NCBI RefSeq assembly: GCF_004010195.1
Contig: NC_057749.1
Coordinates: 10,875,646 to 10,897,874 of the forward strand
Reading direction: 5' to 3'
Length of the DNA stretch: 22,229 bases
From: Chiloscyllium plagiosum
Taxonomy: Eukaryota
This document shows positions 2,016 to 19,066 of this stretch, piece after piece. A model generated the notes under the pieces. It was not told the DNA's origin, ran no database searches, and was given only the letters and a program-made list of their open reading frames with translations. The first letter of the stretch is position 1. Each line of letters starts with the position of its first letter. A program made the position numbers and the translations under genes.

Positions 2016-2109
2016 TCGTGAGTGTGGTGCTGGAAAAGCCCCGCAGGTCAGGCAGCATCTGAGGAGCAGGAGACTCGACGTTTTGGGCATAAGCCCTTCA
2101 TCACGAAGC
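2016..2109 (-). mobile_element. Mini Penelope-like cassette (single pLTR arm) with degenerate hammerhead
   Basis: Arm matches 8940-9030 and 17491-17583; flanked by a 10-bp direct repeat TGATTCAAAG (2006-2015 / 2110-2119); minus strand GTGATGA-A-GGGC-TTAT-GCCC-AAAAC-GTC (core mutated). Confidence 0.8.
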
Positions 2110-2253
2110 TGATTCAAAGCCTCCTGTGCTGTTCTGCAAAAGTTTATTAAGCTGTTGCTGATTGTCATAGAAACCCATCTGGTTCACCTAACTTCCTTTA
2201 GGGAAGGAAGCTGTCTCACTTTCCTGGTCTCGCCTACATGTGACTCCAGACCT

Positions 2254-3103
2254 GTCATAGTCATAGAGGTGTACAGCACGGAAACAGGCCCTTCGGTCCA
2301 ACCCGTCCATGCCGACCAGATGTCCCAACCCAATCTAGTCCCACCTGCCAGCATCCAGCCCATATCCATCCATACCCATCCAGATGCCTTTTAAAGATTG
2401 CAATTGTACTAGCATCCACCACTTCCTCTGGCAGCTCATTCCATACACATACCACCCTCTGCATAAAAACATTGACACTTAGGTGCCTTTTATATCTTTC
2501 CCCTCACCCTAAACCTATGCCCTCTAATTCTGGACTCTCCAACCCCAGGGAAAAGACTTTGTCGAATTATCCTATCCATACCCCTCATGATTTTATAAAC
2601 CTCTATAAGGTCACCGCTCAGCCTCTGATGCCCCAGGGAAAACAGCCCCAGCCTGCTCAGCTTCTCCCTGTAGCTCAAATCCTCCAACTCTGGCAACATC
2701 CTTGTAAATCTTTTCTGAACCCTTTCAAGTTTCACAACATCCTTCTGATAGGAATGAGACCAGAATTGCGCACAATATTCCAACAGTGGCCTCATCAATG
2801 TCCTGTATAGCCGCACATGACCTCCCAACTCCTGTACTCAATACTCTGACCAATAAAGGAGTACTCAATACTCTGACCAATAAAGGAAAGCATACCAAAC
2901 ACCACCTTCACTATCCTATCTATCTACAACTCCACTTTCAAGGAGCTATGAACCTGCACTCCAACATTTCTTTGTTCAGCAACACTCTCCAGGACCTTAC
3001 CATTAAGTGTATAAGTCTTGCTCTGATTTGCTTTTCCAAAATGCAGCACCTCGCATTTATCTAAATTAAACTCCATCTGCCTCTGCTCAGCCCATTGGCC
3101 CAC
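2254..3103 (-). mobile_element. CR1-clade LINE, 3' ~850 bp (ORF2 C-terminus remnant plus 3' tail)
   Basis: Minus-strand ORFs give LYRTLMRPLLEYCAQFWS...LERVQKRFTRM...RLSGDLIEVYKIM and RVVCVWNELPEEVV...FKRHLD, typical of the CR1 ORF2 end; frameshifted; terminal CTATGACTATGAC microrepeat. Confidence 0.92.
2834..2887. repeat. Perfect 27-bp tandem duplication within the CR1
   Basis: GTACTCAATACTCTGACCAATAAAGGA at 2834-2860 and 2861-2887. Confidence 0.95.
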
Positions 3104-3254
3104 TTAACTGCTCTCTGGGCAATTAGATACAGATAATAAATGTTGGCCGAGCCAGCGACACCCTCATCATGTGAATGAATACAAATAAAGTCTCTTGTTG
3201 TGTTTTGGCTGTGTAATGATCATTTTGATTTTTGAGTTTTTGTCTCTCTCCAAG

Positions 3255-3356
3255 GCCCTTCTGGTTAACTTTAATTCTAGTCGTGTTGATTCAACACATA
3301 CTGACTCGACTCCTATTTCTTCAGAAGGATGGGAAACAGTTCAGCCTCACTAACAG
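3255..3356 (+). CDS. STRA6: STRA6 internal coding exon (4th from last), 102 nt: (W)PFWLTLILVVLIQHILTRLLFLQKDGKQFSLTN(R)
   Basis: Pyrimidine tract plus AAG acceptor (AG 3253-3254), GTACAG donor at 3357; matches vertebrate STRA6 WPFWLTL...LTNR; phase 2/2, joins the next exon in frame. Confidence 0.92.
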
Positions 3357-3674
3357 GTACAGGAAGCATTGATAATCACTGGAGTACTCTAAATTGCTGA
3401 GCGCTTAGGGAGTTTTAAAAATTTTAGTTAATTAGTATTGTATTAACTGCATTTTTCCATTGTGGCTTGGTCAGTAGCACTCTTTCCTCTGAGCTATTAA
3501 ATGATTTATTGTAACTTGTATTTTGCAGTAAATAATACAGTAAAATACAATGAAAATTTTCAAAGGTTGCCACAATCTGGTGTCATTTTGAATAGTTTAA
3601 AAATATATAACTTGAAAAGGAGTCTGGCTTTGTTCAGCCCTATTCCAGAGACTGGAGCCCTGTCCTGCCAGATG

Positions 3675-3775
3675 TGGATGTAGGTTTGCTCGCTGAGCTG
3701 GAAGGTTTTTTTTTCAGACGTTTCGTCTCCATACTAGGTAACATCTTCAGTGAGCGTCTGGACAAAGCCCGGCAT
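3675..3775 (-). mobile_element. Mini Penelope-like cassette, distinct family, with hammerhead
   Basis: 10-bp direct repeat CTGCCAGATG at 3665-3674 and 3776-3785; contains a hammerhead consensus on the minus strand. Confidence 0.75.
3713..3755 (-). ncRNA. Minimal type I hammerhead ribozyme motif (core intact)
   Basis: Minus strand: UCA-CUGAAGA-U-GUUACC-UAGUAU-GGAGAC-GAAAC-GUC-UGA; stem I UCA/UGA, stem II 5 of 6 paired, palindromic stem III ACGU. Confidence 0.7.
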
Positions 3776-3892
3776 CTGCCAGATGAACATACATTTCTCC
3801 AGCATTATTTGAAGGAGACTGAGGCTGTTCCCACAAGTATCCTGGCCAAGATTTCTCCCTCAATCAACAGCAAATGATCTGGTCATTTAGTG

Positions 3893-4274
3893 AAGATGGT
3901 GGGGTACCGGTAATGTCCCTGCACCAGTAATCCACAACCAATGGCTAATGATCTGGAGATGTAGCTTCAAACCACACCACAGTAACATGTGAACTAAAGT
4001 TCAATTCATAAATCTGGCTGTTTGAAATCTCATCATTGGTGACCATAAAACTATCATGGATTGGTGTAAAAGCCCATCTGACTCACCAGTGCCTGATAAT
4101 CTGCTGCCCTTGCCCGGTCTGGTCTACTTGTGACTCCAGGCACACAGCATTGCGGTTGATTCTTAACCTGCATGGCCCTGGCATGCCACTTGGCTTAAGG
4201 GCAATTAGGGATGGGCAACAAAAGAATTGGCCATCCATACCTACATTCTCACAAAAGAATGAGCAAAATAAAAT
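3893..4274 (+). mobile_element. SINE-B copy, diverged
   Basis: GTAAAAGCCCATCTGACTCAC...GGTCTGGTCTACTTGTGACTCCAG...GGGCAATTAGGGATGGGCAACAAAAG, colinear with 13100-13452. Confidence 0.7.
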
Positions 4275-4280
4275 CACTCT

Positions 4281-4620
4281 GGGGTGGCACAGTGACTCAG
4301 TGGTTAGCACTGCTGCCTCACAGCACAAGGGACCCAGGTTCGATTCCACCTTCGAGCGACTGTCTGTGCGGAGTTTGCACATTCTCCACGTGCCTGCATG
4401 AGTTTCCTCCGGGTGCTCCAGTTTCCTCCCACAGCCCAAAGATGTGCAGGTCAGGTGGATTGACCATGCTAAATTGCCCACAGTGTTTAGGGATGTGTAG
4501 GTGAGGGTGGATTAGTCAGGAGTGGGGGAATGGGTCTGGTTGGGTCACTCTTCAGAGGCTGGGTGTGGACTTGTTGGACTGAAGGGCGTGTTTCCACATT
4601 CTAGGGATTTTACGGTTCTC
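4281..4620 (+). mobile_element. HE1-like V-SINE, full length
   Basis: A-box TGACTCAGTGG (4293-4303), B-box GGTTCGATTCC (4337-4347), V-domain, CR1-like tail. Confidence 0.88.
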
Positions 4621-4682
4621 CTGAAAGTCATACTGCAGGCAGTGGTTGAATCAAACATTCTGACCACCTGCTCCTATTGGTG

Positions 4683-4921
4683 CTCTGGGTGCTTTCCTCC
4701 AGGTGCTCCAGTTTCCTCCCTCAATCCAAAGGTGTGCAGTTTAGGTGGATTGGCCATGCTAAATTGTCCATATCATCCAGGGGTGTGTAGGCTAAATGGA
4801 GTAGCCATAGGAAATGAGGATTGCAAGGATAGGGTAACAGGTGAGTCTGGGTGGGATGCTGTTCAGAGGATCGGTGTGGACTGAATGGCCTGCTTCCACA
4901 CTGTAGAAATTCTATCATTCT
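4683..4921 (+). mobile_element. HE1-like V-SINE, 5'-truncated
   Basis: GGTGCTCCAGTTTCCTCCC...TTGGCCATGCTAAATTG...GAATGGCCTGCTTCCACACTGTAG. Confidence 0.8.
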
Positions 4922-4946
4922 TTGATAAAGAGTACTCAAATATTTA

Positions 4947-5040
4947 AGAACAGGAATTGTTGAAAGAGCTCAGCAGGTCTGGCAGCATCTGTGGCGAGAA
5001 ATCCGACTTGAAGTTTCTGATCGAGTGACCCTTCCTTGGA
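4947..5040 (-). mobile_element. Mini Penelope-like arm (family of 7654-7835), hammerhead decayed
   Basis: CTCAGCAGGTCTGGCAGCATCTGT is shared with 7692-7753; minus strand GGAAGGGTCACTCGATCAGAAAC is a stem II / GAAA remnant. Confidence 0.65.
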
Positions 5041-5054
5041 AGGATTCAAGTTTA

Positions 5055-5295
5055 ACAGCAAATTTCTACAGCAGGGTGACCGGAATTGAATACAATATTC
5101 TAAAAGTGATCTCACCAATACAGCATGACCTCTCAAATCATACACGGTGCACTCACCAATGAAGGCAAGCGTGCCAAACTCCTCCTCCTCCACCCTGCCT
5201 ACCTGCAACTCCACTTTCAAGGAACTATGAACCCATACACCCTAGATCTTTCTGTTTGTCAACACTCCCCAAGGCCCTACCATTAACAGTATATA
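5055..5295 (-). mobile_element. CR1 ORF2 fragment
   Basis: Minus-strand ORF: FGTLAFIG...LVRSLLEYCIQFRSPCCR, homologous to the CR1 at 2750-3010. Confidence 0.8.
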
Positions 5296-5330
5296 ACTTA
5301 CCTCACTGCATTATCTTCCTCTTTCCACAG

Positions 5331-5494
5331 ACGAAGCCTGTACATCTTCACTTACCTGCTTTTCGCTTTCAATGTTCTGATTGGGGTCATTGCCGGTGTG
5401 TGGAGAATCGTCTTTACAGCTCTATACAACATTGTCCATTTTTGCCGATTGGACCTGGGCCTTATAAATCGAGGGGCAGAGATTTTTGACCCAG
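5331..5494 (+). CDS. STRA6: STRA6 coding exon (3rd from last), 164 nt: (R)RSLYIFTYLLFAFNVLIGVIAGVWRIVFTALYNIVHFCRLDLGLINRGAEIFDP(G)
   Basis: Acceptor TCTTCCTCTTTCCACAG (AG 5329-5330), donor GTAAGC at 5495; matches STRA6 NVLVG...WRV..SALYN..H...DL...DPG; phase 2/1. Confidence 0.95.
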
Positions 5495-6435
5495 GTAAGC
5501 TTCTGTCTTCATATTCTGAAGTCCAATTTTATTTTCATTTGAACTGTATTAGTTTCACACTATCGTACTGGCAATGCATTGAGTTTCTTTTAAAAACTGT
5601 GTGTTGGTTTGTGAAACCAAAAATGGTTCTTTAGAAGTATTATTTTTAGACGAGTGAAAAGCCACCAATTTGGTGAAGTTTCGTTTCCTGGTACGATGCA
5701 AACCAACAGAATAGCTTCACATTCTGCCTTAGATTGCATTGGGGATGTAAGGTTGTTGAATATTTTTTAAGGTGAAGGTGGATAAGCGTTTTGTGAGATA
5801 AGGGAATCAAAAGTTATTGGGTTGTTATGGTGTGGGAACGGCAAGCCAAACCAAATCAGTCTCACTATCACAGGCTTCAGAAGATGATGAAATTCAAACA
5901 TTCAATGGTCCTCAAAATTGGTCAGTTGTTCCTAACCAAATAACAGATCCTGAAAACAACTTAAACAACTATTAACAATTTATTACTAAGAATGTATTTT
6001 CAGCAGAAAACAAACTACAAGATGATGTAATTAATATTTATGATCTGAACTCAATCTTCTTTGACAATAAACTGCCCCCCCCCCCATTTTCTGAGACAGA
6101 CAAATATAGTTAAAGGATGCATTTGAAAAGAAAATAAAAGAATCCTAATTTCTCAATTCAATAATCATTTCAACAATGAATACTTCATGAAATCCTTGGA
6201 TAATGGGATATATCACAAGCACATAGAACTGTACATCTTGCTTGAGTTCCAAAATTCACAGCTCCCACAGTGTCTCTGGAGACATTTTATTTTAACTATT
6301 TCTTATCAAATGTGGTTCATTTCTCAGAATATTCAACAAGTTGATAGCCAGAGAATAATGAGACAGCAAAACCGAAAACAGCTTCCCAGTCTGACAGCTT
6401 CTAAAGCAAAACTGCCTTCTGCCCAAATCCAGTCA

Positions 6436-6620
6436 GGAGAAAGTGAGGGCTGCAGATGCTGGGGATCAGAGCTTAAAAATGTGTTGCTGGAAAAGCGCAG
6501 CAGGTCAGGCAGCATCAAAGGAGAAGGAGAATCGAGGGCTTATGCCCAAAACATCAATTCTCTTTCTCCTTGAATGCTGCCTGACCGGCTGCTCTTTTCC
6601 AGCAACACATTTTTAAGCTC
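6436..6620 (-). mobile_element. Palindromic mini Penelope-like cassette
   Basis: Inverted arms 6469-6535 / 6554-6620, unpaired ~33-nt tail on the left, flanking AAATCC(C)AGTCAG duplication (6425-6436 / 6621-6633); the spacer keeps GGGC-TTAT-GCCC-AAAAC but lacks CUGAnGA. Confidence 0.85.
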
Positions 6621-7653
6621 AAATCCCAGTCAGCACCAGTTCACTCTTTTTCTCTTTCTTTTCCAACATTTGGACAGCACCAATCTTCCATTCATTGACC
6701 AATTCAACATCCAATCAGCTGCCAGTCCTTGAGCATAACAGCATCTTGGTGCTCAATTGCCTACAGTGTTCTTAGAGCAATAATTCGCCTGTATTATCTT
6801 TCCAGGCCAGTTCCCAATGGCAAAAATTAGTCTTGTGTGTTTTTTATTTAAAAGAACAGGCTGCTGTTCAAAGTTCAATTCTCAACTGCAACTCTCAGTT
6901 CTAAACTAAAAATTAGAAAAATTAAAAAAAAAACAATAGTCTCGACAGGGTATGGCTGTACATCTCTCTGACTCTATCGATGGAAATGTGGAACTCAATG
7001 CCAGCAGATCAACTGTAGTCTTTTTGAATGGTAGGGCAGGCTCAATGGACTGAGGGGCTGATATCAACTCTTGCACCTTTTTTGTTTCTGTCTCCATTCC
7101 AATTGAACACTGAATGATATAAATGAGACTGTGGTTCTGTTGCTGTTCATATTATCACAGTGTCCTTTATTTGAATGATGAAACATTGTATTTCTATTGC
7201 AAAATGCTGGCGATCTATCACTTAAATAATCCTGGGCCTCTGTAGGAGCACAACATTGCATTTTCCAACCATTCTGCCTCTCAGAGAATCTCCTGGGCTC
7301 CAACAAACTCTTGTACTTATCACCCAGGCAGTGTGTTTTGTCCAATTTAACAATAAATAGTAAAGGGACAAATAATCTGGACCAGAAATGTTGCTTTGTC
7401 ATGGGGGTTGAGCGATGTGTGTGCATGTGCTCCCTGAGTTCATTTTTAACCCTACTGCTCCTGAAGAGTACAGTCAACATACAAGCCTGTTGGAGATGGG
7501 TTCATACTTTATAAATAAAATCTGAATATGCCCATGTGGGAAGGTGGTGGCTGTTGTCAACGTGTAGATCCACAGATGTTAAACTTTGTTTTTCTTGTCT
7601 CTGCGATTTGAATTAGATTTCAGTATGAGTGGTCAACACTAGTTATGGTTTGG

Positions 7654-7835
7654 ATAAAAGCAAATTACTGCGGATGCTGGAATCTGAAACCAAAAGAGAA
7701 AATGCTGGAAAATCTCAGCAGGTCTGGCAGCATCTGTAAGGAGAGAAAAGAGCAGACGTTTTGAGTCACATCAGCTCTTTTCTCTCCTTACAGATGCTGC
7801 CAGACCTGCTGAGATTTTCCAGCATTTTCTCTTTT
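7654..7835 (-). mobile_element. Palindromic mini Penelope-like cassette with perfect 62-bp arms
   Basis: 7692-7753 is the exact reverse complement of 7774-7835, with a 20-nt spacer; ~38-nt tail on the left; direct repeat TAGTTATGG at 7640-7648 / 7835-7843. Confidence 0.9.
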
Positions 7836-7949
7836 AGTTATGGGATGGAGTTTTCCAAGTCTCTCTGCCTCTGTACAACACCAGACAACAAATTTACCAA
7901 CAGTGCCTTTTCTATAGGGTTAGGAAAATGGTGATTATTTTGTAAATTA

Positions 7950-8520
7950 GGGAGGTGTTGGCCTAATGGTATTACCGCTAGACTTTTAATCCCTGCCATT
8001 GTGGAATTTACATTTTTTAAAAATGGAATTAGAAGCCTAACGATGATTTTATAACCATTGTCAATTCATAAAATCATACAGTGCAGAAAAAGACCTTTCA
8101 GCCCATAGAGTTGATACCTACCCTCTGAAGAACATCCTATCCAGATCCAGCCCCCCTACCCTATCCCTGTTACCAGGGCCAATCCACCTAACCTGCACAT
8201 CTTTGGACTGTGGGAGGAAATCGGAGAACCCAGCGGAAACCCACACAGACACAGGAAGAACGTGCAAACTCTACATATTCTCCCAACCTGGATTCCTGGT
8301 GCTGTGAGGTAGCAGTGCAAATCACTGAGCCACAATGCCGCCCACTTTTGAAAATTATTGGAGACATGCATCTGGTTCATTTAGGAAAAGCAATCTGCCA
8401 TCCTTACCTGGTCTGGACTGCAGACCCACATCAGTGTGGTTAACTCTGAACAATTAGGGTTGGGCAAAAAAGGCTGGGCCTAGCCACTGATACTCTCACC
8501 AAATGAATGAATAAAAAACC
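7950..8520 (+). mobile_element. SINE-B copy interrupted by an HE1-like SINE
   Basis: Head GGGAGGTGTTGGCCTAATGGTATTACCGCTAGAC; resumes CATCTGGTTCA...CTGCCATCCTTACCTGGTCTGG...AATGAATGAATAAAAAA. Confidence 0.72.
8067..8343 (-). mobile_element. HE1-like V-SINE
   Basis: Minus strand GGGCGGCATTGTGGCTCAGTG...GAGTTTGCACGTTCTTCCTGTGTCTGTGTGGGTTTCC...CCCACAGTCCAAAGATGTGCAGGTTAGG. Confidence 0.85.
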
Positions 8521-8639
8521 CACAAGGAGTGTTACAAAGATGGAAATCCACATCCTAAATCCTGTTACTTCCAGATGTGGCAGTGTGCCCTATGATGTCC
8601 TTTTGTATGAAATTGTGCCTATTTTCACTTCAGTTCTCA

Positions 8640-9640
8640 GTTAATAAATCTGGAACTGACAGCTAATCTCAGTGATGGTGACTATCCTAGCTACCATCAA
8701 TTGTAAAAACCCATCTGGTTCATGAATGCCCTCTGGTGTCCTTACCTGATCGAGCCAACATGTTTGCCTGTGTAATGAACTTCCTGAGGAAGTGATGGAT
8801 GTGGGTACAATTACAATGATTAAAAGACATTTAGATATGTACATGGATAGGAAAGGTTTGGAGGAATATGGGCCAGGCATGGTTTAGTTTGGGATTATCT
8901 TCGAGGAGAAAGTGAGGACTGCAGATGCTGGAGATCAGAGCTGAAAATATGTTGCTGGAAAAGCACAGCAGGTCAGGCAGCATCCAAGGAACAGGAGAAT
9001 CGATGTTTCGGGCATGAACCCTTCTTCTAGGAATGAGGAAAGTGTGTCCAGCAGGCTAAGATAAAAGGTGGGGGGAGGGGCATTGGAAATGCGATAGGTG
9101 GAAGGAGGTTAAGGTGAGGGTGATAGGCCGGAGTGGGGGTGGGGGCGGAGAGGTCAGGAAGAAAATTGCAGGTTAGGAAGGTGGTGCTGAGTTCGAGATT
9201 TGGGTTGCAAAGGACCTCTACTGTTCGGTTGGGTTGGTTGGTGCGGGTGTCCCAGAGGCGTTCTCTGAAACGTTCCGCAAGTAGGCGGCCTGTCCCCCCA
9301 ATGTAGAGGAGGCCACATCGGGTGCAGCGGATGCAGTAAATGATGTGTGTGGAGGTGCAGGTGAATTTGTGGCCGATATGGAAGGATCCCTTGGGGCCAA
9401 GTAAGGGAAGTAAGGGGGAAGGTGTGGGTGCAAGTTTTGCATTTCTTGCGGTTGCAGGGTAAGGTGCCCGGAGTGGAGGTGGGGTTGGTGGGGGTGTGTG
9501 GACTAAAGGGTCTGTTTCCATGCTGCATGACTCTGACGCATTTGCCAGTTGGTTGGCGCTGCCCTCTGAAATGGCCATTCAATTCAAGGAAATTTAGGGA
9601 TGGAGCACAAATCTTGAGTTTGTCAGCAACACCCACAGAG
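8640..9640 (+). mobile_element. SINE-B remnant hosting a CR1 3' fragment (8770-8902 plus 9499-9537), which itself hosts the PLE
   Basis: GTAAAAACCCATCTGGTTCA at about 8703; the SINE resumes CTGCCCTCTGAAATGGCC...TTAGGGATGG at about 9558; CR1 tail AATGAACTTCCTGAGGAAGTG...AAAAGACATTTAGAT continues as GGACTAAAGGGTCTGTTTCCATGCTG after the PLE. Confidence 0.7.
8903..9498 (-). mobile_element. 5'-truncated Penelope-like retroelement (probably Neptune type): Cys-rich linker, GIY-YIG endonuclease remnant and 3' pLTR with degenerate hammerhead
   Basis: Minus frames: PGTLPCNRKKCKTCTHT, then after a frameshift FTCTSTHIIYCIRCTRCGLLYIGGTGRLLAERFRE (IIY...YIG motif); the 3' end is the same family as the mini cassettes; hammerhead reads CUAGAAGA-A-GGGUUCAUGCCC-GAAAC-AUC. 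Confidence 0.9.
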
Positions 9641-9752
9641 GATAAAGAAAGAAAAATTATTTTGCATCTGTGCGTGTGTGGTTTATTGCATAGCTAGGAA
9701 CCAATCACAGCTAATGAAGGCTGCAAAAAAAAGTTTTTTTTTCTTTCTGCAG

Positions 9753-9890
9753 GCTATCACTGCTACTCCAACTTCCTGGAGGTGGAGGCCAGTCAGTCTC
9801 ATCGAGTGATGAGAGCTTTCTGCTTCCTCCTACTCCAGTGCCAAGGTTCCGGGAGAGGTTGCATTGAGAAAAGGAGATCAGTGGAAGAAG
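9753..9890 (+). CDS. STRA6: STRA6 penultimate coding exon, 138 nt: (G)[45 protein letters not shown](G)
   Basis: Acceptor TTTTTTTTTCTTTCTGCAG (AG 9751-9752), donor GTCAGT at 9891; matches STRA6 GY..Y.NFL..E.SQSH..M.AFC..LLQ; phase 1/1. Confidence 0.95.
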
Positions 9891-10225
9891 GTCAGTGATT
9901 GCACACAGTGCAAAGGGAGACCTTCAAAAATTAACTGTTTCGGAAACCAAAGTTTAGAATTTGGTGGAGAAATCTGATGTGTTCCAGTGTTTTTTTTTCC
10001 TGTGCTTATTTAATGTAAAGCTTATATGCCTATGCACAGGGTCAGGTACAGCCATATACAAAATAGTTACCTCCACTCTTTTTTTTTAAAATAAACTGTA
10101 CCATTCCATATGATAGGCATGGTGAATGGAGTACAGTTTGGAGTTACACAATAGTTAATGGGTGTTTGAATACCGAAAGCCAATGTAAGAATTACTACAC
10201 TCTGCCTCTTGTAAGGCTCCCAGTA

Positions 10226-10388
10226 CAGAGGAATCTTGATTATCCGAAGGACATGGGCGGGGAGTATTTCACTTGGTTAATCGAATTCCGGATAATCAAA
10301 TGTCGGATAACATAGTTTAGGACCTTGTGATCTTGCCGGATAATCCGATATTCAGATCATTGAATGCTGGATAATTAAGGTTCCTCTG
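10226..10388. mobile_element. Non-autonomous DNA transposon (MITE), Tc1/mariner superfamily, pogo/Tigger-like
   Basis: TA target duplication (10224-10225 / 10389-10390); 20-bp TIRs CAGAGGAATCTTGATTATCC vs CAGAGGAACCTTAATTATCC (18/20); internal GGATAA repeats. Confidence 0.85.
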
Positions 10389-10391
10389 TAT

Positions 10392-10540
10392 ATAGAACAT
10401 TACAGTGCAGTACAGGCCCTTCAGCCCTCGATGTTGCACCGACCTGTGGAACCAACCTGAAGCCTATCTATCCTATAATATTCCATTTTCGTCCATGTTT
10501 ATCCAGTGACCATTTAAATGTCCTTAAAGTTGGCGAGTCT
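10392..10540 (-). mobile_element. CR1 3' tail fragment
   Basis: ATAGAACATTACAGTGCAGTACAGGCCCTTCAGCCC... resembles the CR1 3' terminus at 2254-2400. Confidence 0.7.
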
Positions 10541-10876
10541 TATTTTAAAACATTCCAGTGATCGGTTCATATTATAATAAAATGTAACAAACATATGATT
10601 GAATGCTCACCTGTATCTTAAGTCTTGCACCTACACGCAGTCCACTAAATTTCTGTGTTCTAATTATAATGTAAACTTGTCACGCTGTAATTGTATCCTC
10701 CCGCCACTGGTGATGCTGTAGTGCCACCATTTTGCTTCTCCTCCTCCATCTGAACTACAGAGAAATTCCCAGGCTTTACTCAATTCTTCCTGAAGTGTTG
10801 CGCATTTTGCTACTTGTTGCCTGTGAGAGTTTCTAGGCTCTATGAGCCATTCTGATGCGTGTGTTTTGAATCCCAG

Positions 10877-11115
10877 GGATTCAGTTGGTGCCTGATCAGA
10901 AGCATACAAAATTGACAAAGTCGAAACGAGTTCTGGCAAGATGGTGCCTGATCTACACACTTCTGAACAATCCTTCATTGGTTCGCTGCAGGAGGCCCGT
11001 GGTTTGCTCGCTCAATGATGTCGTTACCAATGGGGAAATGAAGAGTTCCTCCAAACCCAGCACAGAGGATCTTGTTAAATCTGAACTTTGTGAAAAAACA
11101 CAAGGTCCTGTATAA
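10877..11115 (+). CDS. STRA6: STRA6 terminal coding exon: (G)IQLVPDQKHTKLTKSKRVLARWCLIYTLLNNPSLVRCRRPVVCSLNDVVTNGEMKSSSKPSTEDLVKSELCEKTQGPV*
   Basis: Acceptor CCCAG (AG 10875-10876), phase 1; ARWCLIYTLLNNPSL corresponds to human ARWGLAYTLLHNPTL (calmodulin-binding / YTLL region); stop TAA at 11113-11115. Confidence 0.95.
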
Positions 11116-11174
11116 ATCAGAATGTTGATGCAACTAATCACAAGTAGGTGGTCAGTCATGTTTCTACACAGCTA

Positions 11175-11180
11175 AATAAA
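11175..11180 (+). promoter_or_regulatory. Candidate STRA6 polyadenylation signal
   Basis: First AATAAA after the stop codon (60 nt downstream); actual usage unknown. Confidence 0.35.
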
Positions 11181-11704
11181 AATGTGCATAGTTGCACACA
11201 TCATGCCTACACACATCACATCCTGTTGCAATAATTGGTCAAATTTACCCCTGGATTTTGCTATGTCAACAATCACAACATAATTACAGACTCTGGCCAC
11301 TAGGTAGCTCTGTAGAGCAAGATCGATACACACTGAACTCTACATAGCCTTCTATTTAAAGAACCATTTTTAATTCATCAGCTAACTTACATCAACACTA
11401 GGGTTATTTTTGGTGGTGATATATGATTAGAATTGTTTATTTGTCTTTTTGTAGCTATTGGATTTTGTTACTAATTGTGACCTGGGCTGGTTTGAATTTT
11501 TACGAACAGCCATTATGAGAATGAGTTGCAATGAAAGACTTACACTATGTACCTGTATTGGTTGACAGCTTTCCGTCCAATAAGATACATCTCATGACGC
11601 CATGTGATATAAATCCTGACATGTCGTAAATATTTTTTAAATGAAAACTTTGGTGCTACAGATAAAAGATAGTCAGTTGGTACTATAGAACATGACTATT
11701 TCTA

Positions 11705-12070
11705 AGAAAATATACATTTTGTCAAGGTTTTTCACTTGACAGTTATGAGGATAATTTACAAGAATACTAATTCTCGATGGAGGCAAACCATCATTCCTAC
11801 TGCTTGAGAGAAGAGAGCTGATTGGTTGGTAAACAAATGAGCTTTGATTTTGTCAAGGTGTTGCCATGGAGAATGCACCAGTGATGCTGATTGGTAGTTG
11901 ACTGCCAGGCTTTGTTTAAATTTTAAACTAGGTGTGTTTGGTCAGGGCCTTACTGTCTGTTTGGTCAGGGCCAAACTGGGGATGTTTGGTCAGGGCCTTA
12001 CTCTGAGAAATGAACTGACACACTGCTATCATTTTTTAGAGTTAAGGTTTTGACAAAATGTATCTTTTCT
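11705..12070. repeat. ~365-bp segment bounded by 21-bp inverted repeats (old element)
   Basis: AGAAAATATACATTTTGTCAA (11705-11725) vs reverse complement of 12050-12070, AGAAAAGATACATTTTGTCAA (20/21). Confidence 0.6.
11935..11997 (+). repeat. Three exact copies of 15-mer TGTTTGGTCAGGGCC with 8- and 10-nt spacers
   Basis: Copies at 11935-11949, 11958-11972 and 11983-11997. Confidence 0.9.
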
Positions 12071-13099
12071 TTCAGCAACACATCATTGTAAAAATCTAGG
12101 AGAGAAGAAAATGTTAAAATAATATGCTAAATTTTAAAATAATTTTTAAATGTTTTACCTTTCCTTTAAATTTTATATCCTGTGCTCATTAGCTTAAAAA
12201 CTGTTAAAATAACATTTGTTTTTAAATGCCAATCTTTGGTACTGTATTTACATGACATTTTCCTAAAGTTTGTTCATTTTTTTTATTCCAATCTCTCTCC
12301 TGTATGATTTTTGTCATTCACCTCATTATTAGGTTTGAAAGTATTGTTGCTTGTGCTCATTGTTACTGCAGTGAAAGTAGAGCTCATCCACAGAGTATTT
12401 TGCTGGGAATATTTGACTTTTGTGCTGAGGGAATTGGAAGTGAAGTTGGGAGATCTTGTTGCTCATCACAATGAGGATGTAGGTCTACGGCTGTTGCCAA
12501 ACATACACCAAAAGCCACCTCAAAGTACATTAGGGGATGATCGTAGCTCCTTGCTGGATTGAGACTGATATGTCATGGTGCCATTTGCCATGGAGATTTG
12601 GTAGATAGTTAACATTTACCTGAGAGGTTGCGATGACTCTCTGTGAATGATTTTCAACCTCCATTGTTTCAGTTCAGGACGTTTGGAGGTCTGAGCTTTG
12701 TAGATGTAGATGATACGTTTGGATCCTTTTGTAAGCTTTTCAAACCCTGCACACGCAAGTGAAAATTTGGCTGGCCAACCAACCAACTTACTTATCAATG
12801 AGTTGCAAAGACTTATAGCAATTTTGAGAAAAGAGACATGCTGTAGATGATTTTCACCTTGTACTCACTAGAACAGGACACATACTGAAGAGCATGGGAG
12901 GGCATTCCAGGAGCAACAGCAGGCATACCCATAACTGAGCTGTTAATCTGGTGAAGGTACAACACAGGACTAGCGGGAGTTAAGTGGTTCCACAAACAAT
13001 GGATTGGATCTGAGCTTTTCAGTCCTACCACATCCAGCAATGAATGGTTATGAAAAATTAAACAACTCACTAGAGGAGAGGGCCTCCAACCTCAATAAT

Positions 13100-13452
13100 G
13101 GGGAGTTGATGGTCCTGTGGTCTTATATCTGGACTGTTAATCCAGAGACCCTGGTAATGTTCAGGGGACCCAGACTCGAATCCTACCATGACAGATGGTG
13201 GAATTTTAATTTGAGTATCTAGAATTAGGAGTCTAGTGATAACTATGAAACAATTATCGATTGTCAGTAAAATCTATCTGGCTTATTAATGTCCTTTAGG
13301 GAAGGAAACTGCTATCCTTCCCTGGTCTGGCCTAGATGTGACTCCCGACTGTCAGCAATGTGGTTGATACTTGTTTGTCCTTGGGCAATTAGGTGTAGAT
13401 AGTAAATGTTTACCTGGCCAGCCATGCCCACATCCCATGAAATAATAAAAAA
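13100..13452 (+). mobile_element. SINE-B, full-length uninterrupted copy
   Basis: GGGGAG head, B-box-like GACTCGAATCC, body AATGTCCTTTAGGGAAGGAAA...CCTGGTCTGGCCTAGATGTGACTCC, tail GGCCAGCCATGCCCACATCCCATGAAATAATAAAAAA. Confidence 0.82.
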
Positions 13453-13489
13453 TCAGTTCATAAGTTTAAGGTTGATGTATTTGTTAGTA

Positions 13490-14075
13490 TCTTCAGCCAG
13501 CAATGCTGTGTTAATGATCTTCCTTGGCCTCTTCTTAGTCCCCGGTGTCATGGATGCCAGTCTTCAGCCAATTGGATTCATGCCATGAGATATCCAGGAA
13601 TAGCTGAAGGCAGTGGATATTGCATACGCATACAGATGACATTCCAGCAACAGTTCTAAAGAGTTGTACTCCCAACCTTGCCATACCCGCAGCCAAGACG
13701 TTCTTGCATAGCTATAACACTGGCATCTACCTGATAATGTGGAACATTGCCCTGGTATTTCCTATACACGGTCGAGAGTGTGGTGTTTGAAAAGCACAGC
13801 AGTTCAGGCAGTATCCGAGGAGCGGGAGAATCGACGTTTTGGTGTAGGCCCTTCATCAAGAGCTTATGCCCAAAACATTGATTTCGCTACTCCTCGGATG
13901 CTGCCTGACCTGCTGTGCTTTTCCAGCGCCACACTCTCTGACCTCCAGCATCTACAGTCCTCATTTGCTCCTAATTGATTTCCTGAACATAGCAGACCAA
14001 ATCAAATCCAGCCAATTACTGCCTTCTCAATCTACTATTGATCATCAGCAAAGTGATGGAAACACTATCACTGAT
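13490..14075 (+). mobile_element. Old CR1/L2-group LINE ORF2 fragment (pre-RT region), interrupted by a PLE cassette
   Basis: Pieces translate to DASLQPIGF, SYNTGIYLIMWNIALVFPIH and NPANYCLLNLLLIISKVME, matching the W..A.V.P..K / P.NYRPISLL...SK..E motifs. Confidence 0.75.
13771..13973 (+). mobile_element. Palindromic mini Penelope-like cassette, diverged
   Basis: Inverted arms at about 13774-13853 / 13858-13938, tail on the right; both hammerhead remnants carry AAAAC instead of GAAAC. Confidence 0.85.
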
Positions 14076-14542
14076 TATAGAGGGGAGGGATGCCTTTGAA
14101 GATGTATAAAATTGTTTCCTTTTTCTAGCATAACTGTCCATACACCTGCAGCTAAAAACAGTTCTTGCTGAATTAACATTGGACTGTGACGTGTTTTAAG
14201 TACACTTGCCCATTTTGTTCACAGTGAGCAAAATGACCAAAGGTGCCTTTAATACATATACCTACACTGACTTAGAATCACTTTACCTTGAGATATGGAT
14301 CCTCTTCTTTAACATGATATAGATGTATTTTACTGTACCACCTTTTTATGCTCTTTCTGGTTTATACAATAAAATACAATTATTACAATGAAGCTGAAAC
14401 TGATTTCAGACATTTCTATGCACTTAAGGGCTTATTTGTTTCCATATCTGACAATGAATCACTCATTTTTCAGGATTTAAAATTACACTGCGTCTGGGTG
14501 TGGTTGAGTATCTGTGTAATTCTTCACACTGAGATAGGATTT

Positions 14543-14880
14543 CAACTTGCATTTATACAGTGCCTTCTTAAATTAGTAAAATGCCCCAAGGCGTTTCACA
14601 GGAGTATCACCAAATGAAAATAAACCGATAACGAGCCAAAGGCAACACCAGGATGCACCCTCGTAGAAACAGGCTCAAAGGAAGGAAGGGAGGGTGAGAA
14701 TTTTCAGCTGGAAGTTTCAGAGCTTGGGACCCAAACAGCTGAAGGCACCAAGAGTGGATGAGGACATAAGGGAAGCAGGATAAGAACTGAATTGTGAGAA
14801 GCAGAAATACCTCCACGAGCTGCAGGATGTAGATGATAATTATCGAAATACCCTTGAGATAAATGATTGTGCCTGGAATG
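14543..14880 (-). mobile_element. L2-type LINE 3' fragment
   Basis: AACTTGCATTTATACAGTGCCTT...CCCAAGGCGTTTCACAGGAG is the reverse complement of the L2/DeuSINE-type tail. Confidence 0.6.
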
Positions 14881-14948
14881 AGAAAAGGCAGCCAGCCAGC
14901 CCATGTAAGTGCCTGCCCATTAATTAGGATTTGAGACGTGATCATAAA

Positions 14949-14962
14949 GTGTGTGTGTGTGT
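14949..14962. repeat. (GT)7 microsatellite
   Basis: Direct reading. Confidence 0.9.
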
Positions 14963-15936
14963 ATAATCTGTCAGAGGAGGTGGCATTAGTGAAGGTACCT
15001 GTTGTAGATCATGGTACTTGTCCATCATTTCAAGGCAATATGAGTGGAACTGCACATGAGCTTGACAGAACTAGCAACTGGCATTTTACAGCTACTGTTT
15101 GAAGCTATTGATTTTGGGTTTCATCTGGAGTGTTCTTTTAGGGCCCAATCCCAATTAACTACACAAAACAGTACGGGATCACTGGTACTGATGAGACCTC
15201 CGTTGAGTTAGTTTTAAACCTACAGTGTTAAGTATCTCATTAACCTACATGGAGGAAGATGTGTTCTGATGATAACAATGAAGAACTTGCCATTTGTATT
15301 CTCTATATCTCTGTACCCCTCCCCCTCCTCCTCTCATGAGGGGCAGCCCCAGCTCCCAAAGGCCCTCCTTGAATAATTTAATTCTGATTGATCTGACCTG
15401 CTTCATTTGAAACCTTCTGGATTTATTTTTAAATCCATTTATATGGAAATGACAGGTTGCTCTTGCTACATGAACCGAGTGACTTAAGGCGACATTTCCT
15501 CAAATTGGTACCAGAAGGCTAAAAACTCAAATTTCCAAAAGAGTCTAGAGAAAACATTAGAATGTACTCAGCTGTGAATTGCGTTATAAGGCTGTAGTTG
15601 GTAGTGTCACATGTGCTAGACCTGTAACACACTGCATCATTAAAGGCAGAAGAATCTGACACTGTACAGACATGTAGCACAGTCACTCTGTTTTGGAGCG
15701 ATTAGTCCACTGTACAAACATGTTATCAGATTATGTTTTTAAATGTGGAGAATCACCATCAGGAATTTTCATTTACATTCATGTTGTCCTGGGTACAGAA
15801 TATACAAGTCGCAGCAAGAAATGAAGTACAAATGAAGGTCACTGAGCTCCTGGTATTCAGCAAGATTAAAAATCTTGGAAGTTAACAACACAAAGTTCTC
15901 AGATTCAGCTCTTGTGACTATCATTGAAAATTAATA

Positions 15937-16480
15937 GGGGCAGACAGTGATGTAATGATATTTTCACTGGTCCAGTGTCCAGAGGCTAGTGCTATAGTCA
16001 GGTGTCACATAACGCCAGGTTACAGTCGAACAGGTGTATTTGTAATCGCAAGCTTTTGGAGCACTGCTCCTTTGTCAGATGAAGTCAAATAAACCTATTG
16101 GACTATACCTGGGTGTTACCTGACTTCCAATTTTGTTCATGCCAGTCCAACACTAGCATCTCTACATCTAGGGACATGGGTTCAAATGCCACCACTGCAC
16201 AGTTTGAATTCAATCAATAAATCTGAAATTGGAAGCTAGATTAATTGATGGTGGCCATGACAACTATGATGTTTAACTCCCACCTGCTTTACTATTGTCC
16301 TGTAGGGAAGGAAATGCTGACCTGGTCTGGCCTATATGCAACTCCAGAGCCATTGTAAAGTGGTGGACTCTTGACCACTTTCTGACATGGCCCAGCGAGC
16401 CACTCAATTCACAAGCAATGAAAGAATAAAAATTGACCTCAGCAGTGACACTCATATCCCATGGAAGAATAAAGGAAGAA
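15937..16480 (+). mobile_element. SINE-B copy interrupted by a PLE cassette
   Basis: GGGACATGGGTTCAAATGCC, TAGGGAAGGAAATGCTGACCTGGTCTGGCCTATATGCAACTCCAGAGCC, tail CATATCCCATGGAAGAATAAA. Confidence 0.72.
15997..16168 (+). mobile_element. Palindromic mini Penelope-like cassette, further family, degenerate hammerhead
   Basis: Imperfect inverted arms at about 16004-16042 / 16086-16124; minus strand CUGACAA-A-GGAGC-AGU-GCUCC-AAAAGCUU keeps a perfect 5-bp stem II. Confidence 0.7.
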
Positions 16481-16594
16481 ATGCATAAATGATCAAATGG
16501 GAAGGTCCACTATGACTCCTTCCCAATTTCACAAACTTCCATGACACCCTAATGCTATCTGATCTGTTTCCAGATTTTTCTTGTTTTTCAGAAA

Positions 16595-17010
16595 TGTGAC
16601 TTCTGTGGTTGCTCTCTTGCCTGTGATTCAGCAGATTGGCTTCTCCCTCCTGCCCAAAGTCAAGACTGACATTTTTCCACGTGGAACTGAGGGAGTGCAA
16701 CACTGGCGTTGTTCAGTCACAATCAGGCTCTGTCCACCTTCTCAACTACACAGCTCAGATGCTGAAACACACTTCCAACTCAAGGTGGCGCTCCCCTGGG
16801 GTCCTGACAGCATTTACCTCTCAACCAATATGTTAAAGACGATTCAGATCATCACTGCACTGCTGTTTGGGAGGTGAATACGTTGTGCATACTGGCTGGT
16901 GTTTCCCCCATCATTGTAAAGTGGCGCTAACTTAAAAGTGCATTAGATCGAAAGTACTTTGCAATATCTTGAGGTCATGGAAGATGCTATACAAGGGCAA
17001 AGTTTCCTTA
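16595..17010 (+). mobile_element. Degenerate DeuSINE-like element (SacSINE1/AmnSINE type)
   Basis: ACTGAGGGAGTGC, GTCCTGACAGCATTTACCTCTCAACCAA, CTGCTGTTTGGGAG and tail TGAGGTCATGGAAGATGCTATACAA follow Deu-domain order. Confidence 0.6.
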
Positions 17011-17546
17011 ATTTACAGCAGCTGAAGAACATTTGGTCTTCCTGTGGGAATTGCCGTCAGAAAGTAGATTGGCAGTCAAATATCAAAGTTAGCATCAAAG
17101 GGTATTTTGTCAATATTAATAGAATTTATAATCTGTTAGCTCTATGGTGATGGCTTGTCTGGAACTTAACTCTGAGTTTGACACAACCTCAGGATCTGAG
17201 CATGTCATCTAGGCTGACCACTTAATGCTTATATTCTCATTGAAATTTTCGAAGATCCTGAAGAGATAAATAGGGTAGGCACTGAGAGATTGGCTGCTGC
17301 ACAAATTCAGGATAAGGAGCTGATCACTTAGGGCTGAGATAGGGAGAAAAGTCTTCACTCAAAGGGTTATTAATCTTGTAATTTATTCCATTGACACGCC
17401 CTCCCTTCGTTGCTGAACACATTTTAGACTGGGATAGACTGCTGTTTTGGTTTTAAGAGACATGGAGAGTGAGAGGGGACTGTGGACGTAAAGATTAGTG
17501 GTGTTGGAAAAGCACAGCAGGTCAGGCAGCATCCGAGGAGCAGGAA

Positions 17547-17582
17547 AATTGACGTTTCGGGCAAAAACCCTTCATCAGGAAT
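17547..17582 (-). ncRNA. Minimal hammerhead ribozyme motif (core intact)
   Basis: Minus strand: CUGAUGA(17578-17572)-A-GGGU-UUUU-GCCC-GAAAC-GUC(17551). Confidence 0.7.
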
Positions 17583-17609
17583 GGAGGCTGCGAGCCTCCC
17601 CGAAGCCTC

Positions 17610-17645
17610 ATTCCTGATGAGGGGCTTTTGCCTGAAACGTCGATT
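17610..17645 (+). ncRNA. Minimal hammerhead ribozyme motif (core intact, G-U closing stem II)
   Basis: CUGAUGA(17614-17620)-G-GGGC-UUUU-GCCU-GAAAC-GUC; predicted cleavage after C17641. Confidence 0.7.
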
Positions 17646-17971
17646 TTCCTGCTCCTTGGATGCTGCCTGACCTGCTGAGCTTTTCCAACACCACACTAAT
17701 CTTGACTCTGATCTCCAGCATCTGCAGTCTTCCCTTTCGCACAGTGGAGTTGAAGCCCACCACTCGATCTCCTGACTTTCAAATAACCCTTCAACTCAAC
17801 TCCTGGCCCATCGCCCACCATAACTACCCCCTTTTTTAATGATACGATGGACTGAACAGTCAACTCCAACTCCTCTTTCCTACATTCTCAGTGGGGGAGT
17901 TGAATTGTCAGTTTCCTGTGACCATCGCTGTTCACGCAGTTTAGCTGATTACAGCTCAAATCTGTAAAGAA

Positions 17972-18175
17972 AAAGTGTATTTATAGTGACTTTTATGTAA
18001 AGACAAATAATTGATTATACAAAACAGCATTTGACAGAGGATTAACATGTGACCAAAGTTGAATTGTAGAGGTTGGTTTTAAGAAGCGTCTTAAAGAGAC
18101 AGAGAGAGAGAGGTAGCGAGGTTTAGGAAGGGAATTTATATCTAGGGGCCCAGTCAATCAAAGATATGGTCACCA
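17972..18175 (-). mobile_element. L2-type LINE 3' fragment
   Basis: TGTATTTATAGTGACTTT...GGTTTTAAGAAGCGTCTTAAAG...GGTTTAGGAAGGGAATT, related to 14543-14880. Confidence 0.5.
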
Positions 18176-18371
18176 GTCAGAAAATAATCAAGAAAACTAA
18201 TGAAATGCTAGCCTTTATATCTAGAAGACTGAAGTATAAGGATGCAGAAGTTATGCTGCAGTTACACAAAATCCTAGTCGAGTAGTGTGTACAGATCTGG
18301 ACACCACGCTTTAAGATACTAACAGGAAAATTAAGATAACTATTTCCACTGGTTGGGGATTCTACAACTTG

Positions 18372-18542
18372 AGGAGAAAGTGAAGTCTGCAGATGCTGGA
18401 GATCAGAGCTGAAAATGTGTTGCTGGAACAGCGCAGCAGGTCAGGCAGCATCCCGGGAACAGGAGAATCGACGTTTCGGGCAAAAACCCTTCTTCAGGAA
18501 GGGCTGCCTGACCCGCTGCGCTGTTCCAGCAACACATTTTCA
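18372..18542 (-). mobile_element. Palindromic mini Penelope-like cassette with perfect 14-bp target-site duplication
   Basis: TSD GATTCTACAACTTG at 18358-18371 / 18543-18556; arms 18409-18449 / 18503-18543 (40/41); the tail matches the GIY-YIG copy at 8903. Confidence 0.92.
18466..18500 (-). ncRNA. Minimal hammerhead ribozyme motif (core intact)
   Basis: Minus strand: CUGAAGA(18497-18491)-A-GGGU-UUUU-GCCC-GAAAC-GUC(18470)-GA. Confidence 0.72.
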
Positions 18543-18634
18543 GATTCTACAACTTGGGGCATAGGTCTGAGTATTAGGGCTAGACCATTCAGGAGCGATG
18601 TTAGGAAGCAATTCTACACAAAAAGGTAGTAACT

Positions 18635-18897
18635 GGGTGGCAGAGTGGTTAGCAATGCTGCCTCTCAGCTCTAGGGACCCAGGTTGAGTGACCGTGTGGG
18701 GTTTACACAGATTCTCGCAACCGTGTGGGTTTCTGCTGGCTGCACTGGTTTCCTTCATCAAGGCAAAGAATGCGCAGGTTAGGTCTATTAGCCAGGGAAA
18801 TGGATGGTTACAGCCGGGTGGATCTGGGGTAGGCTGCCTTCAGAGGGTGTGGACTTGATGGGCCGAATGGTCCGCTTCCCTACTATGGGGACTCTGA
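18635..18897 (+). mobile_element. HE1-like V-SINE, diverged
   Basis: GGGTGGCAGAGTGGTTAGCAATGCTGCCTC...GGGACCCAGGTT...GTGGACTTGATGGGCCGAATGG. Confidence 0.75.
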
Positions 18898-19066
18898 TAT
18901 TTGGAACTCTCTTCTAGAAACAGTAGTAGATGCGAGATCAGTTGTGAATTTTAAATGAGGTCGATAAATTTATTTGAAACAAGGGAAAAGGGCCAGAAAC
19001 AGGTGGAAGGATTAGCCAGGATCTGATTGGCTGGTAGAACAGTCTTGAGGGGGCTGAATGGCCTCC

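Follow-up and report, generated by a model that had tools for sequence, protein, structure and literature searches.

What are the short, often palindromic, hammerhead-bearing insertions that recur along a 22,229-nucleotide stretch of the shark Chiloscyllium plagiosum (NC_057749.1, positions 10,875,646 to 10,897,874; hereafter the window), part of a 3.56-Gb assembly? The first-pass annotation had described nine short insertions of about four sequence families with one design, linked them to a Penelope-like element (PLE), and offered two readings, namely a unit resembling a retrozyme or a miniature inverted-repeat transposable element (MITE) and amplified as such, or stereotyped abortive insertions. 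We found the nine short insertions and one longer PLE 3' fragment at the expected places in the window, and both the grouping and the common design were borne out by a repeat finder and by family comparison. The results favored the second reading: the short copies are very likely dead-on-arrival, extremely 5'-truncated insertions of several endonuclease-bearing PLE families, produced by normal PLE integration. The amplified unit did not hold up, as the hairpin centers differed among the 19 and 21 copies compared. The full design is already in print for PLEs, and a new class of element is not revealed.

Derivation from Penelope-like elements

The insertions fall into four families: a main family (2016, 6436, 8903, 13771, 17491 and 18372, with three tail variants), 7654 with 4947, 3675, and 15997. 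The six main-family members have one arm in common (D1, 6 copies, in the repeat finder, with D2, D4, D5, D10 and D11), 4947 was grouped with 7654 through repeat D16 (74% over 68 nt), and 15997 was identified as a decayed hairpin (self-inverted score 39, compared with a mean of 19.8 and a maximum of 36 in 200 shuffles). An inverted arm without the last 30-45 nt is present in most insertions, and the unpaired tails in the window measure ~34-44 nt. The annotated PLE derivation, the inverted second arm and the tail of 30-40 nt at one end were all correct.

The main-family arm and tail had been assigned to the 3' end of the element at 8903-9498. When this region was aligned to a longer natural copy (L045:1093-1800), window positions 8903-9198 matched positions 409-704 and 9227-9428 matched positions 2-202, which supports the assignment but shows homology only as far as 9428, short of 9498. 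The split alignment indicates that the window copy is internally deleted. L045 runs from an open reading frame (ORF) with a GIY-YIG-type motif through a C/T-rich 3' untranslated region (UTR) to a hammerhead whose box is at 578 and whose cleavage site follows 605; the copy ends at ~704. The arm and tail corresponded to the 3' end of copies that extend upstream into the GIY-YIG-type-motif ORF, and by this correspondence the arms and tails probably derive from the 3' ends of endonuclease-positive PLEs. As a separate observation, the window PLE fragment lacks ~200 nt at the endonuclease-region end (reference 202 to 409), and similar junctions, not compared base by base, join 217-240 to 391-416 in L032, L033, L034 and L035; the deleted form in window 8903-9428 and L032-L035 may be an amplified deletion derivative.

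At the protein level, the window ORF (9027-9578, minus strand) contained an IYCIRC...LLYIGGTGR motif and had no Pfam match, and the L045 ORF matched Pfam GIY-YIG weakly, below the cut-off (E 1.3e-3). Among database relatives of the ORF, P0002 matched RVT_1 (E 6.8e-8) and P0001 matched GIY-YIG just under the cut-off (E 2.5e-4). The description of 8903 as a GIY-YIG element is weak. The reverse-transcriptase (RT) fragments of L045 had no Pfam match; the RT stretches of the fetched loci read N, and the copies inspected were partial. An own-genome search with the N-terminal part of a relative returned 16,056 first-look candidates, many with open frames of ~900-1,000 residues, so that long copies are very numerous in the genome, and look-ups of solved structures and of a protein atlas with the ORF fragment returned nothing usable.

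Inverted partner pieces were also found upstream of long copies (L042, L049, L051, L052, L053, L127 and L131). The 3.5 kb upstream of L045 was considered as the 5' end of a whole element and rejected, being an inverted second copy. The 760 nt upstream of the long copies (15 readable regions; a 16th almost wholly N) showed variable 5' ends, with no tandem partner in the 15 readable regions. In L139, ACTTCCGCC (ETS-like) and TGACATCA motifs are repeated in the 5' UTR, ~300-450 nt before the conserved part of the ORF, and the presence of these repeats in the 5' UTR of the longest copies suggests a candidate promoter of the coding element.

Five insertions had been credited with target duplications, four of them exact (9-14 bp), and all five were recovered. 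The exact duplications were 10 bp around 2016-2109 (TGATTCAAAG, with copies at 2006-2015 and 2110-2119), 10 bp around 3675-3775 (CTGCCAGATG), 9 bp around 7649-7834 (TAGTTATGG) and 14 bp around 18372-18542 (GATTCTACAACTTG), and the fifth, around 6437-6619, was 13 bp with one indel, CAAATCC(C)AGTCAG. By eye, the duplications of 4947, 13771 and 17491 were imperfect only, and none was detected for 15997 or the 8903 element. Duplication length therefore varies within the window (9, 10, 10, 13 and 14 bp), and elsewhere in the genome it was 12-19 bp. Loose ends from both the RNA and the DNA runs gave an A/T-rich consensus beyond the 3' end of L084 (position 392 on; agreement 0.41-0.51), which agrees with published reports that PLE endonucleases prefer A/T-rich targets.

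Breakpoints, hairpin centers and hammerheads

For the breakpoints we used a tail-anchored sample, which is unbiased for 5' structure. The 65-nt tail of the 17491 subfamily served as the genome query (472 candidates, 40 of them scored), and ~433 nt around each of the 40 copies was mapped on the natural long copy, with positions given relative to the cleavage site (core C3 at -27). The results showed that 22 of the 40 sense-arm 5' ends lay between -41 and -23 (binomial P = 5e-19 versus a uniform spread over 396 nt), with a modal start by eye at -28 to -32, which is 1-5 nt before the CUGAUGA box. The other ends lay at least 250 nt further upstream (6/40, long copies), at -62 (1/40), at -17 or -18 (2/40), from -11 to 0 (6/40) and from +14 to +36 (3/40). 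This clustering within 19 nt bears out the stereotyped truncation near the ribozyme that had been noted from the window. Breakpoints are far from uniform, and there is no peak at the cleavage site. A second 5'-end peak there, suggested by the six ends that BLAST placed at -11 to 0, was rejected after inspection by eye showed ribozyme deletions or scattered ends at -15 to -3; a class of 300-nt copies was also set aside as partly an artefact of score-based selection and of the internal deletion of the window copy, which splits matches.

An inverted arm was present in 21 of the 40 tail-anchored copies. Its outer end fell at +59 to +71 in 17/21 (P = 4e-14), with the 3' end of the other arm at +100, and its inner end fell at -24 to -37 in 12/21 and at +9 to +36 in 8/21. 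Inverted pieces beside long copies of the other subfamily had a similar outer end (+62 to +66). In the 3675 family, 5' ends lay at query positions 3-22 in all 39 non-self matches (39/39), and the inverted partners ended at 62-65 of 101 in 6/10, the others ending at 77, 81, 97 and 99. In the 15997 family, the shorter matches began at positions 98-105, at the ribozyme.

To compare hairpin centers, we searched the genome with the 17491 hairpin (3,146 first-look candidates, 40 of them scored) and obtained 19 distinct full hairpins of the main family. Their arms were conserved, and their central loops were unlike one another in length and sequence, many of them composed of local stutters such as GGAATGAAGGGC. 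The 7654 family (20 genome copies and the window copy) likewise had conserved arms, around a single central ribozyme with variable partial deletions; relative to the tailed arm this ribozyme was sense in ~13/21, antisense in 6/21 and deleted in 2/21, and six copies have a whole antisense ribozyme in common as their center. Because hairpin centers differ between loci, we conclude that every insertion event generated its own hairpin, rather than the hairpins being amplified as units. Uniform breakpoints together with a lack of shared junctions had been named beforehand as the mark of ordinary truncated PLE copies; the outcome went half each way, with no shared junctions, yet clearly non-uniform breakpoints.

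The loop-II variants TTTT and TCCT were both present in long and in short copies. In 3/27 hairpins the two arms carried different variants (0.25 expected by chance, P = 0.002), which argues that at least these were copied from two RNA molecules. The discordant arms point to two RNA templates, as two-sided priming predicts and single-template snap-back does not. Tandem Repeats Finder detected no head-to-tail ribozyme array in the window, and the DNA-run contigs contained few head-to-tail joints (364 to 266 in 1 contig, 392 to 316 in 4).

Relative to the GCTGGAAAAGC... arm, the hammerhead is on the opposite strand, and its elements follow the order CUGAUGA, one extra base, GGGC-UUUU-GCCY, GAAAC, GUC and the cleavage site. 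We applied a strict minimal-hammerhead descriptor (a CUGANGA...GAAA core, 4 or more base pairs in helix II with an extra base ahead of it, a palindromic 15.2-16.2 pair and a U-H dinucleotide for cleavage), which identified three intact sites in the window, at 17614-17641 (+), 17551-17578 (-) and 18470-18497 (-), compared with an expectation of 0.04 per dinucleotide shuffle (maximum 1 in 200 shuffles). All three carry the published PLE traits, namely the extra base between 9 and 10.1, the G10.1-C11.1 pair and the ACGU palindrome. The remaining window hammerheads were remnants with 1-3 core or stem changes. Helix II changes among families with the core kept (GGGC/GCCC; GUUACC/GGAGAC, with one mismatch; GGAGC/GCUCC; GGGUC/GACUC). 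The 7654 family (window 7649-7834 and L106-L125) has a perfect 5-bp helix I, GAGCU/AGCUC, and shows in its core the U3/A8 covariation (UUGACAA...) described in Schistosoma (Cervera and De la Pena 2014, PMC4209133).

The claim that each insertion bears a hammerhead or its remnant was supported by these remnants and intact sites, but an Rfam scan of the whole window at E<=1 matched no hammerhead family. Rfam hammerhead models include helix III, which is absent from the window motifs. For the three intact motifs, neither free-energy folding (RNAfold) nor co-folding yielded the ribozyme fold, so both were uninformative.

At the RNA level, 2,410 reads from one poly(A) single-cell run (X19) covered -40 to +100 in both directions, tracking the depth of the DNA-run contigs, and 98% of the aligned RNA-run material continued into unlike flanking sequence. 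No position in X19 was found where many molecules start or stop, no back-joined reads were listed, and no reads ended at the GUC site, in a library unsuited to self-cleavage products. Run X20 gave 0 reads on the long natural copy.

The density of the insertions in the window had been put at about one per 2.5 kb. The main family formed 27 clusters across 152 kb drawn from flanks and random DNA (1.7-2.0 per 10 kb), compared with 2.7 per 10 kb in the window, so that the window stands at ~1.5x genome background and the supposed swarm is close to that background and not special. Own-genome searches returned 3,146 and 5,375 first-look candidates; the search with the family-A tail returned no matches since very common words are skipped, which is not evidence of rarity. 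By extrapolation from the density in flank and random DNA, the genome total is estimated at several hundred thousand short copies.

Proposed integration reaction and rival explanations

Published work on a lizard (anole) element showed that its protein cleaves and extends both target strands, that reverse transcription starts from two adjacent internal sites, the 30-40 bp tail being the stretch between them, and that the in vitro system makes short products from terminal-repeat-type templates (Frangieh 2024, PMC11167929). PLE insertions described earlier are heavily truncated at the 5' end, have next to them an inverted copy that is itself 5'-truncated, and carry a tail of 30-40 bp on one side (Craig 2021, PMC8557442). 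The shark copies would fit such a reaction as follows. The element protein would cut both target strands, as the 9-19 bp target duplications and the in vitro work suggest, and reverse transcription would begin at one of two internal sites ~35-40 nt apart, with the main copy starting from the downstream site and gaining the tail, and the copy primed by the other strand starting from the upstream site and having none. Each complementary DNA (cDNA) would pass back through the hammerhead and usually stop 1-14 nt upstream of the CUGAUGA box. The two cDNA ends would then be joined with a few stuttered or untemplated bases, giving a hairpin center unique to each insertion, and where the second copy is absent or very short a solo unit of ~95-130 bp would result.

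Synthesis may end at the 5' edge of the ribozyme by run-off at an RNA 5' end located there, or by an enzyme stop or strand switch at the ribozyme. The run-off idea, with transcripts that would begin shortly before the ribozyme, is attractive, and an initiator-like TCATTCC, a weak match found by inspection, lies on the boundary at -33 to -27; the regions upstream of long copies had variable 5' ends, and the ETS-like motifs weaken the idea somewhat. The Penelope of D. virilis has an internal promoter, with transcripts that begin in the terminal repeat (Schostak 2008; Weinberg 2019). The short copies contain no coding sequence, and the one poly(A) single-cell run showed no discrete RNA belonging to them; we infer that they do not propagate.

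Several points weigh against dead-on-arrival insertion as the explanation. The start site in vitro was alike on both strands (Frangieh 2024, PMC11167929), whereas the shark inverted arm nearly always begins at the upstream one. Nor would simple loss of processivity lead one to expect so sharp a 5' boundary. Support from the PLE protein is indirect, with a sub-cut-off Pfam match on the natural copy and none on the window copy. The numbers of copies compared were small (40, 19 and 21), and these came from young subfamilies; the poly(A) single-cell library is blind to small or non-polyadenylated RNA and neither proves nor disproves a short transcript. Moreover, 4-5 copies have a loop junction of 0-3 nt (GGAAT|CCTGATGA), like a single-template fold-back, some solo copies carry 5-9 nt of inverted sequence at the 5' end, and in the 7654 family the single ribozyme is flanked by arms whose start is the self-complementary helix I, GAGCU/AGCUC. 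From these near-zero loops, micro-inversions and the 7654 helix I complement, snap-back may still contribute to the hairpins besides two-sided priming.

Snap-back of a single template, in which the cDNA folds back at the ribozyme through the helix I/II inverted repeats and stops 30-45 nt short of its own start, is a tentative alternative that we consider possible but doubtful. Besides the near-zero loops and micro-inverted 5' ends, it is favored by loops made of local stutters such as GGAATGAAGGGC, by the single central ribozyme of the 7654 family flanked by GAGCU/AGCUC, and by a hand count of discordant arms in 3/24 T- or C-type hairpins versus ~11 expected from random pairing. However, arms of different subfamilies occur in 3/27 hairpins, and 8/21 inverted arms have their outer end at +59 to +71 and get no further than +9 to +36, short of the fold-back point, with a complete sense arm in 6 of those 8 copies. 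In addition, 6/21 copies of the 7654 family have the ribozyme on the tail-less arm and the tail on the other; a tail-less first strand is unable to template a tail, and these copies therefore count against snap-back. A different role for the structure, in which the hammerhead or a protein bound to it is a template boundary that halts the telomerase-related PLE enzyme at its 5' edge on long templates, is unlikely. The ends do lie at the same place relative to the ribozyme despite differing upstream sequence (main A versus B) and in other families, intermediates are few (1/40 ends between -42 and -250, 6/40 longer), and the anole hammerhead cleaved in vitro only with protein added (Frangieh 2024, PMC11167929); but a roadblock should stop the enzyme before the structure and not after copying it, and ribozyme mutants left insertion size unchanged in the same in vitro study.

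A discrete ribozyme-delimited, non-autonomous unit of ~130 nt, resembling a short interspersed element (SINE) or a retrozyme, self-transcribed and copied in trans by PLE enzymes, appears quite unlikely. The sharp-5'-edge size class in several families speaks for it, as do the very high copy number (3,146 and 5,375 first-look candidates, with tail words too common to search), the initiator-like TCATTCC at -33 to -27 (inspection only, weak), the few head-to-tail joints in DNA-run contigs, the internal promoter of D. virilis Penelope, and a 2026 preprint that traces animal retrozymes to PLE terminal repeats (Li, Clavereau and Pollet 2026). Against it, hairpin centers are not common to different loci, both loop variants occur in long and short copies, many of the short copies begin at -28 to -30 and thus lack most of helix I, the RNA reads are bidirectional and continue into the flanks with no discrete starts, and the window has no tandem arrays. 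Internal four-T runs, seen by inspection, count against polymerase III, and the ACTTCCG repeats (ETS-like) that the longest copies carry in their 5' UTR hint at a promoter elsewhere. Inspection also showed no A or B boxes. A broader proposal, that the hammerhead sets the copying limit and that a ~130-nt module of ribozyme and enzyme binding and start sites is the smallest replicon of telomerase-related elements, strikes us as distinctly unlikely; in its variants the module might be transcribed by itself and live as a parasite of PLE enzymes with the ribozyme as its limit, or the ribozyme might be a telomerase-like template boundary. Far less probable than any of these is an identity as DNA-transposon MITEs or microRNA genes. 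It would be suggested by the combination of inverted repeats and target duplications and by Rfam microRNA-family matches over the hairpins, but these matches all lie under the gathering score (best 59 bits versus a gathering score of 86) and reflect hairpin shape only. Furthermore, duplications range over 9-19 bp, the two arms differ in that an unpaired tail of 30-45 nt is found at one end only, and the arms are the 3' end of a retroelement. A MITE identity was rejected, as the inverted repeats stop short of one end and the duplications are not of fixed length.

Canonical endonuclease-positive PLE insertion units were reportedly described by Evgen'ev and Arkhipova in 2005. The shark copies resemble endonuclease-positive PLEs of the Penelope/Poseidon/Neptune type (Frangieh 2024, PMC11167929; Craig 2021, PMC8557442) in their strong 5' truncation, adjacent inverted copy, one-sided 30-40 bp tail, variable target duplications, terminal-repeat hammerhead, and probable coding partner with RT and GIY-YIG. 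They differ from described PLE insertions in being extremely short (~95-250 bp), in having 5' ends concentrated in ~19 nt around the 5' border of the ribozyme, and in an inverted arm that comes almost always from the upstream start site. In metazoan PLEs, minimal hammerheads have been described as pairs on opposite strands and, in large numbers, as lone truncated copies (Cervera and De la Pena 2014, PMC4209133). The shark motifs match these in their CUGANGA and GAAA boxes, the extra base before helix II, the G-C closing pair, the palindromic ACGU in place of helix III, the short helix I and the many dispersed single copies, and the Schistosoma U3/A8 covariation recurs in the 7654 family. Opposite-strand pairs are also common to both, but the published ones lie 100-700 bp apart and the shark ones abut directly as hairpins; the host (a shark-type genome) and the sequence families are new.

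Animal non-long-terminal-repeat retrozymes were reportedly treated by Cervera and De la Pena in 2020. According to Li, Clavereau and Pollet 2026, such retrozymes are, like the shark units, non-coding, hammerhead-bearing and related to PLE terminal repeats, and are thought to depend on PLE enzymes. Retrozymes form head-to-tail tandem arrays that yield circular RNAs, whereas the shark units are dispersed, single or inverted, carry target duplications, form no arrays in the window and gave no sign of circular or discrete RNA in the poly(A) run. In LINE-1 twin priming, an inverted 5' segment arises during target-primed reverse transcription, with the second nicked strand as primer. The shark inverted arm is similar in arising as an inverted 5' segment during such a reaction, but twin priming joins adjacent non-overlapping parts of one RNA, whereas the shark arms cover the same part from a fixed second start site, and in 3/27 hairpins appear to come from different templates.

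A literature search, supplements aside, found no account of shark PLE mini-hairpins, of a 5'-end pile-up at the ribozyme edge, of strand asymmetry in start-site use or of mixed-template hairpins. Hammerhead cleavage was dispensable for insertion in vitro, with no RNA ends at the cut site (Frangieh 2024, PMC11167929). The short shark copies offer a natural record of the integration reaction, in which cDNA synthesis very often stops at the 5' border of the ribozyme rather than at the cleavage site, the second-strand copy appears to start from the upstream of two sites, and at least some inverted pairs would derive from two templates. This record provides in vivo support and refinement for a two-strand model that was built on in vitro work with a single lizard element; the mechanistic detail is modest and deserves specialist attention. 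It also serves as a warning for annotation, as such hairpins score as microRNA-like and sit in host-gene introns.

Inventory of the window and its setting

The span that holds the insertions is mostly intronic. A plus-strand gene has a retinol-binding-protein-receptor exon at 9698-9895 (Pfam RBP_receptor, E 2.7e-11), which places most of the cassettes within introns of a STRA6-like gene; two further likely exons of this gene were seen by eye near 5330-5500 and 10870-11110.

In the main family, repeat finding and long-copy mapping showed that 2016-2109 (minus strand) is a solo copy without a tail, spanning ~-32 to +61 relative to the cleavage site, with a hammerhead remnant that has 2 core changes. 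The hairpin at 6437-6619 (minus strand), supported by inverted repeat I2 (6437-6535/6554-6652) and long-copy mapping, consists of a tailed arm at 6437-6535 (minus-strand sense, ~-1 to +98) and a tail-less arm at 6535-6619 (~-20 to +64). The longer PLE 3' fragment at 8903-9428 (minus strand) comprises the GIY-YIG ORF remnant, the internal deletion, the 3' UTR and a decayed hammerhead at ~9003-9040, and its tail terminates at 8903. At 13771-13975 (plus strand) lies a hairpin with both ribozymes decayed (I21, 13774-13842/13870-13938), with an inverted tail-less arm from 13771 to ~13861 and a tailed arm at ~13858-13975. The hairpin at 17491-17740 (plus strand; I3, 17498-17583/17609-17694) bears two intact minimal hammerheads, a tail at ~17701-17740 and a loop found in this copy only. 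Long-copy mapping and the descriptor identified 18372-18542 (minus strand) as a copy with a tail and an intact hammerhead, followed by a short inverted tail-less arm at 18503-18542 (~+21 to +61).

The second family is represented by a solo copy at 3675-3775 (minus strand), between its exact 10-bp duplication, with intact CUGAAGA and GAAAC-GUC boxes and one mismatch in helix II. The family with the U3/A8 core-variant hammerhead contributes the hairpin at 7649-7834 (minus strand; I9, 7688-7759/7768-7839), which has its tail from 7649 to ~7692 and a partly deleted central ribozyme, and a decayed solo copy akin to it, recognized by repeat D16, lies at 4947-5045 (minus strand, approximate bounds). 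The fourth family is an old hairpin at 15997-16180 (plus strand) with an unpaired tail at ~16125-16180 and one hammerhead remnant, on the minus strand, at its center.

Other repeats and genes lie beside these insertions. tRNA-like SINE-type repeats in both orientations occur at 1-360, 1500-1800, 4280-4910, 8090-8345 and 18630-19300; these repeats (D3, D12, D13 and D17; inverted pairs I1, I4 and I5) are unrelated to the cassettes. At 20292-22193 on the minus strand, an uninterrupted 633-residue ORF matched LRR_8 (1.3e-27) and I-set (2e-9), and this membrane-type protein with leucine-rich repeats and an immunoglobulin domain looks like the product of an intact single-exon host gene in a GC-rich island.

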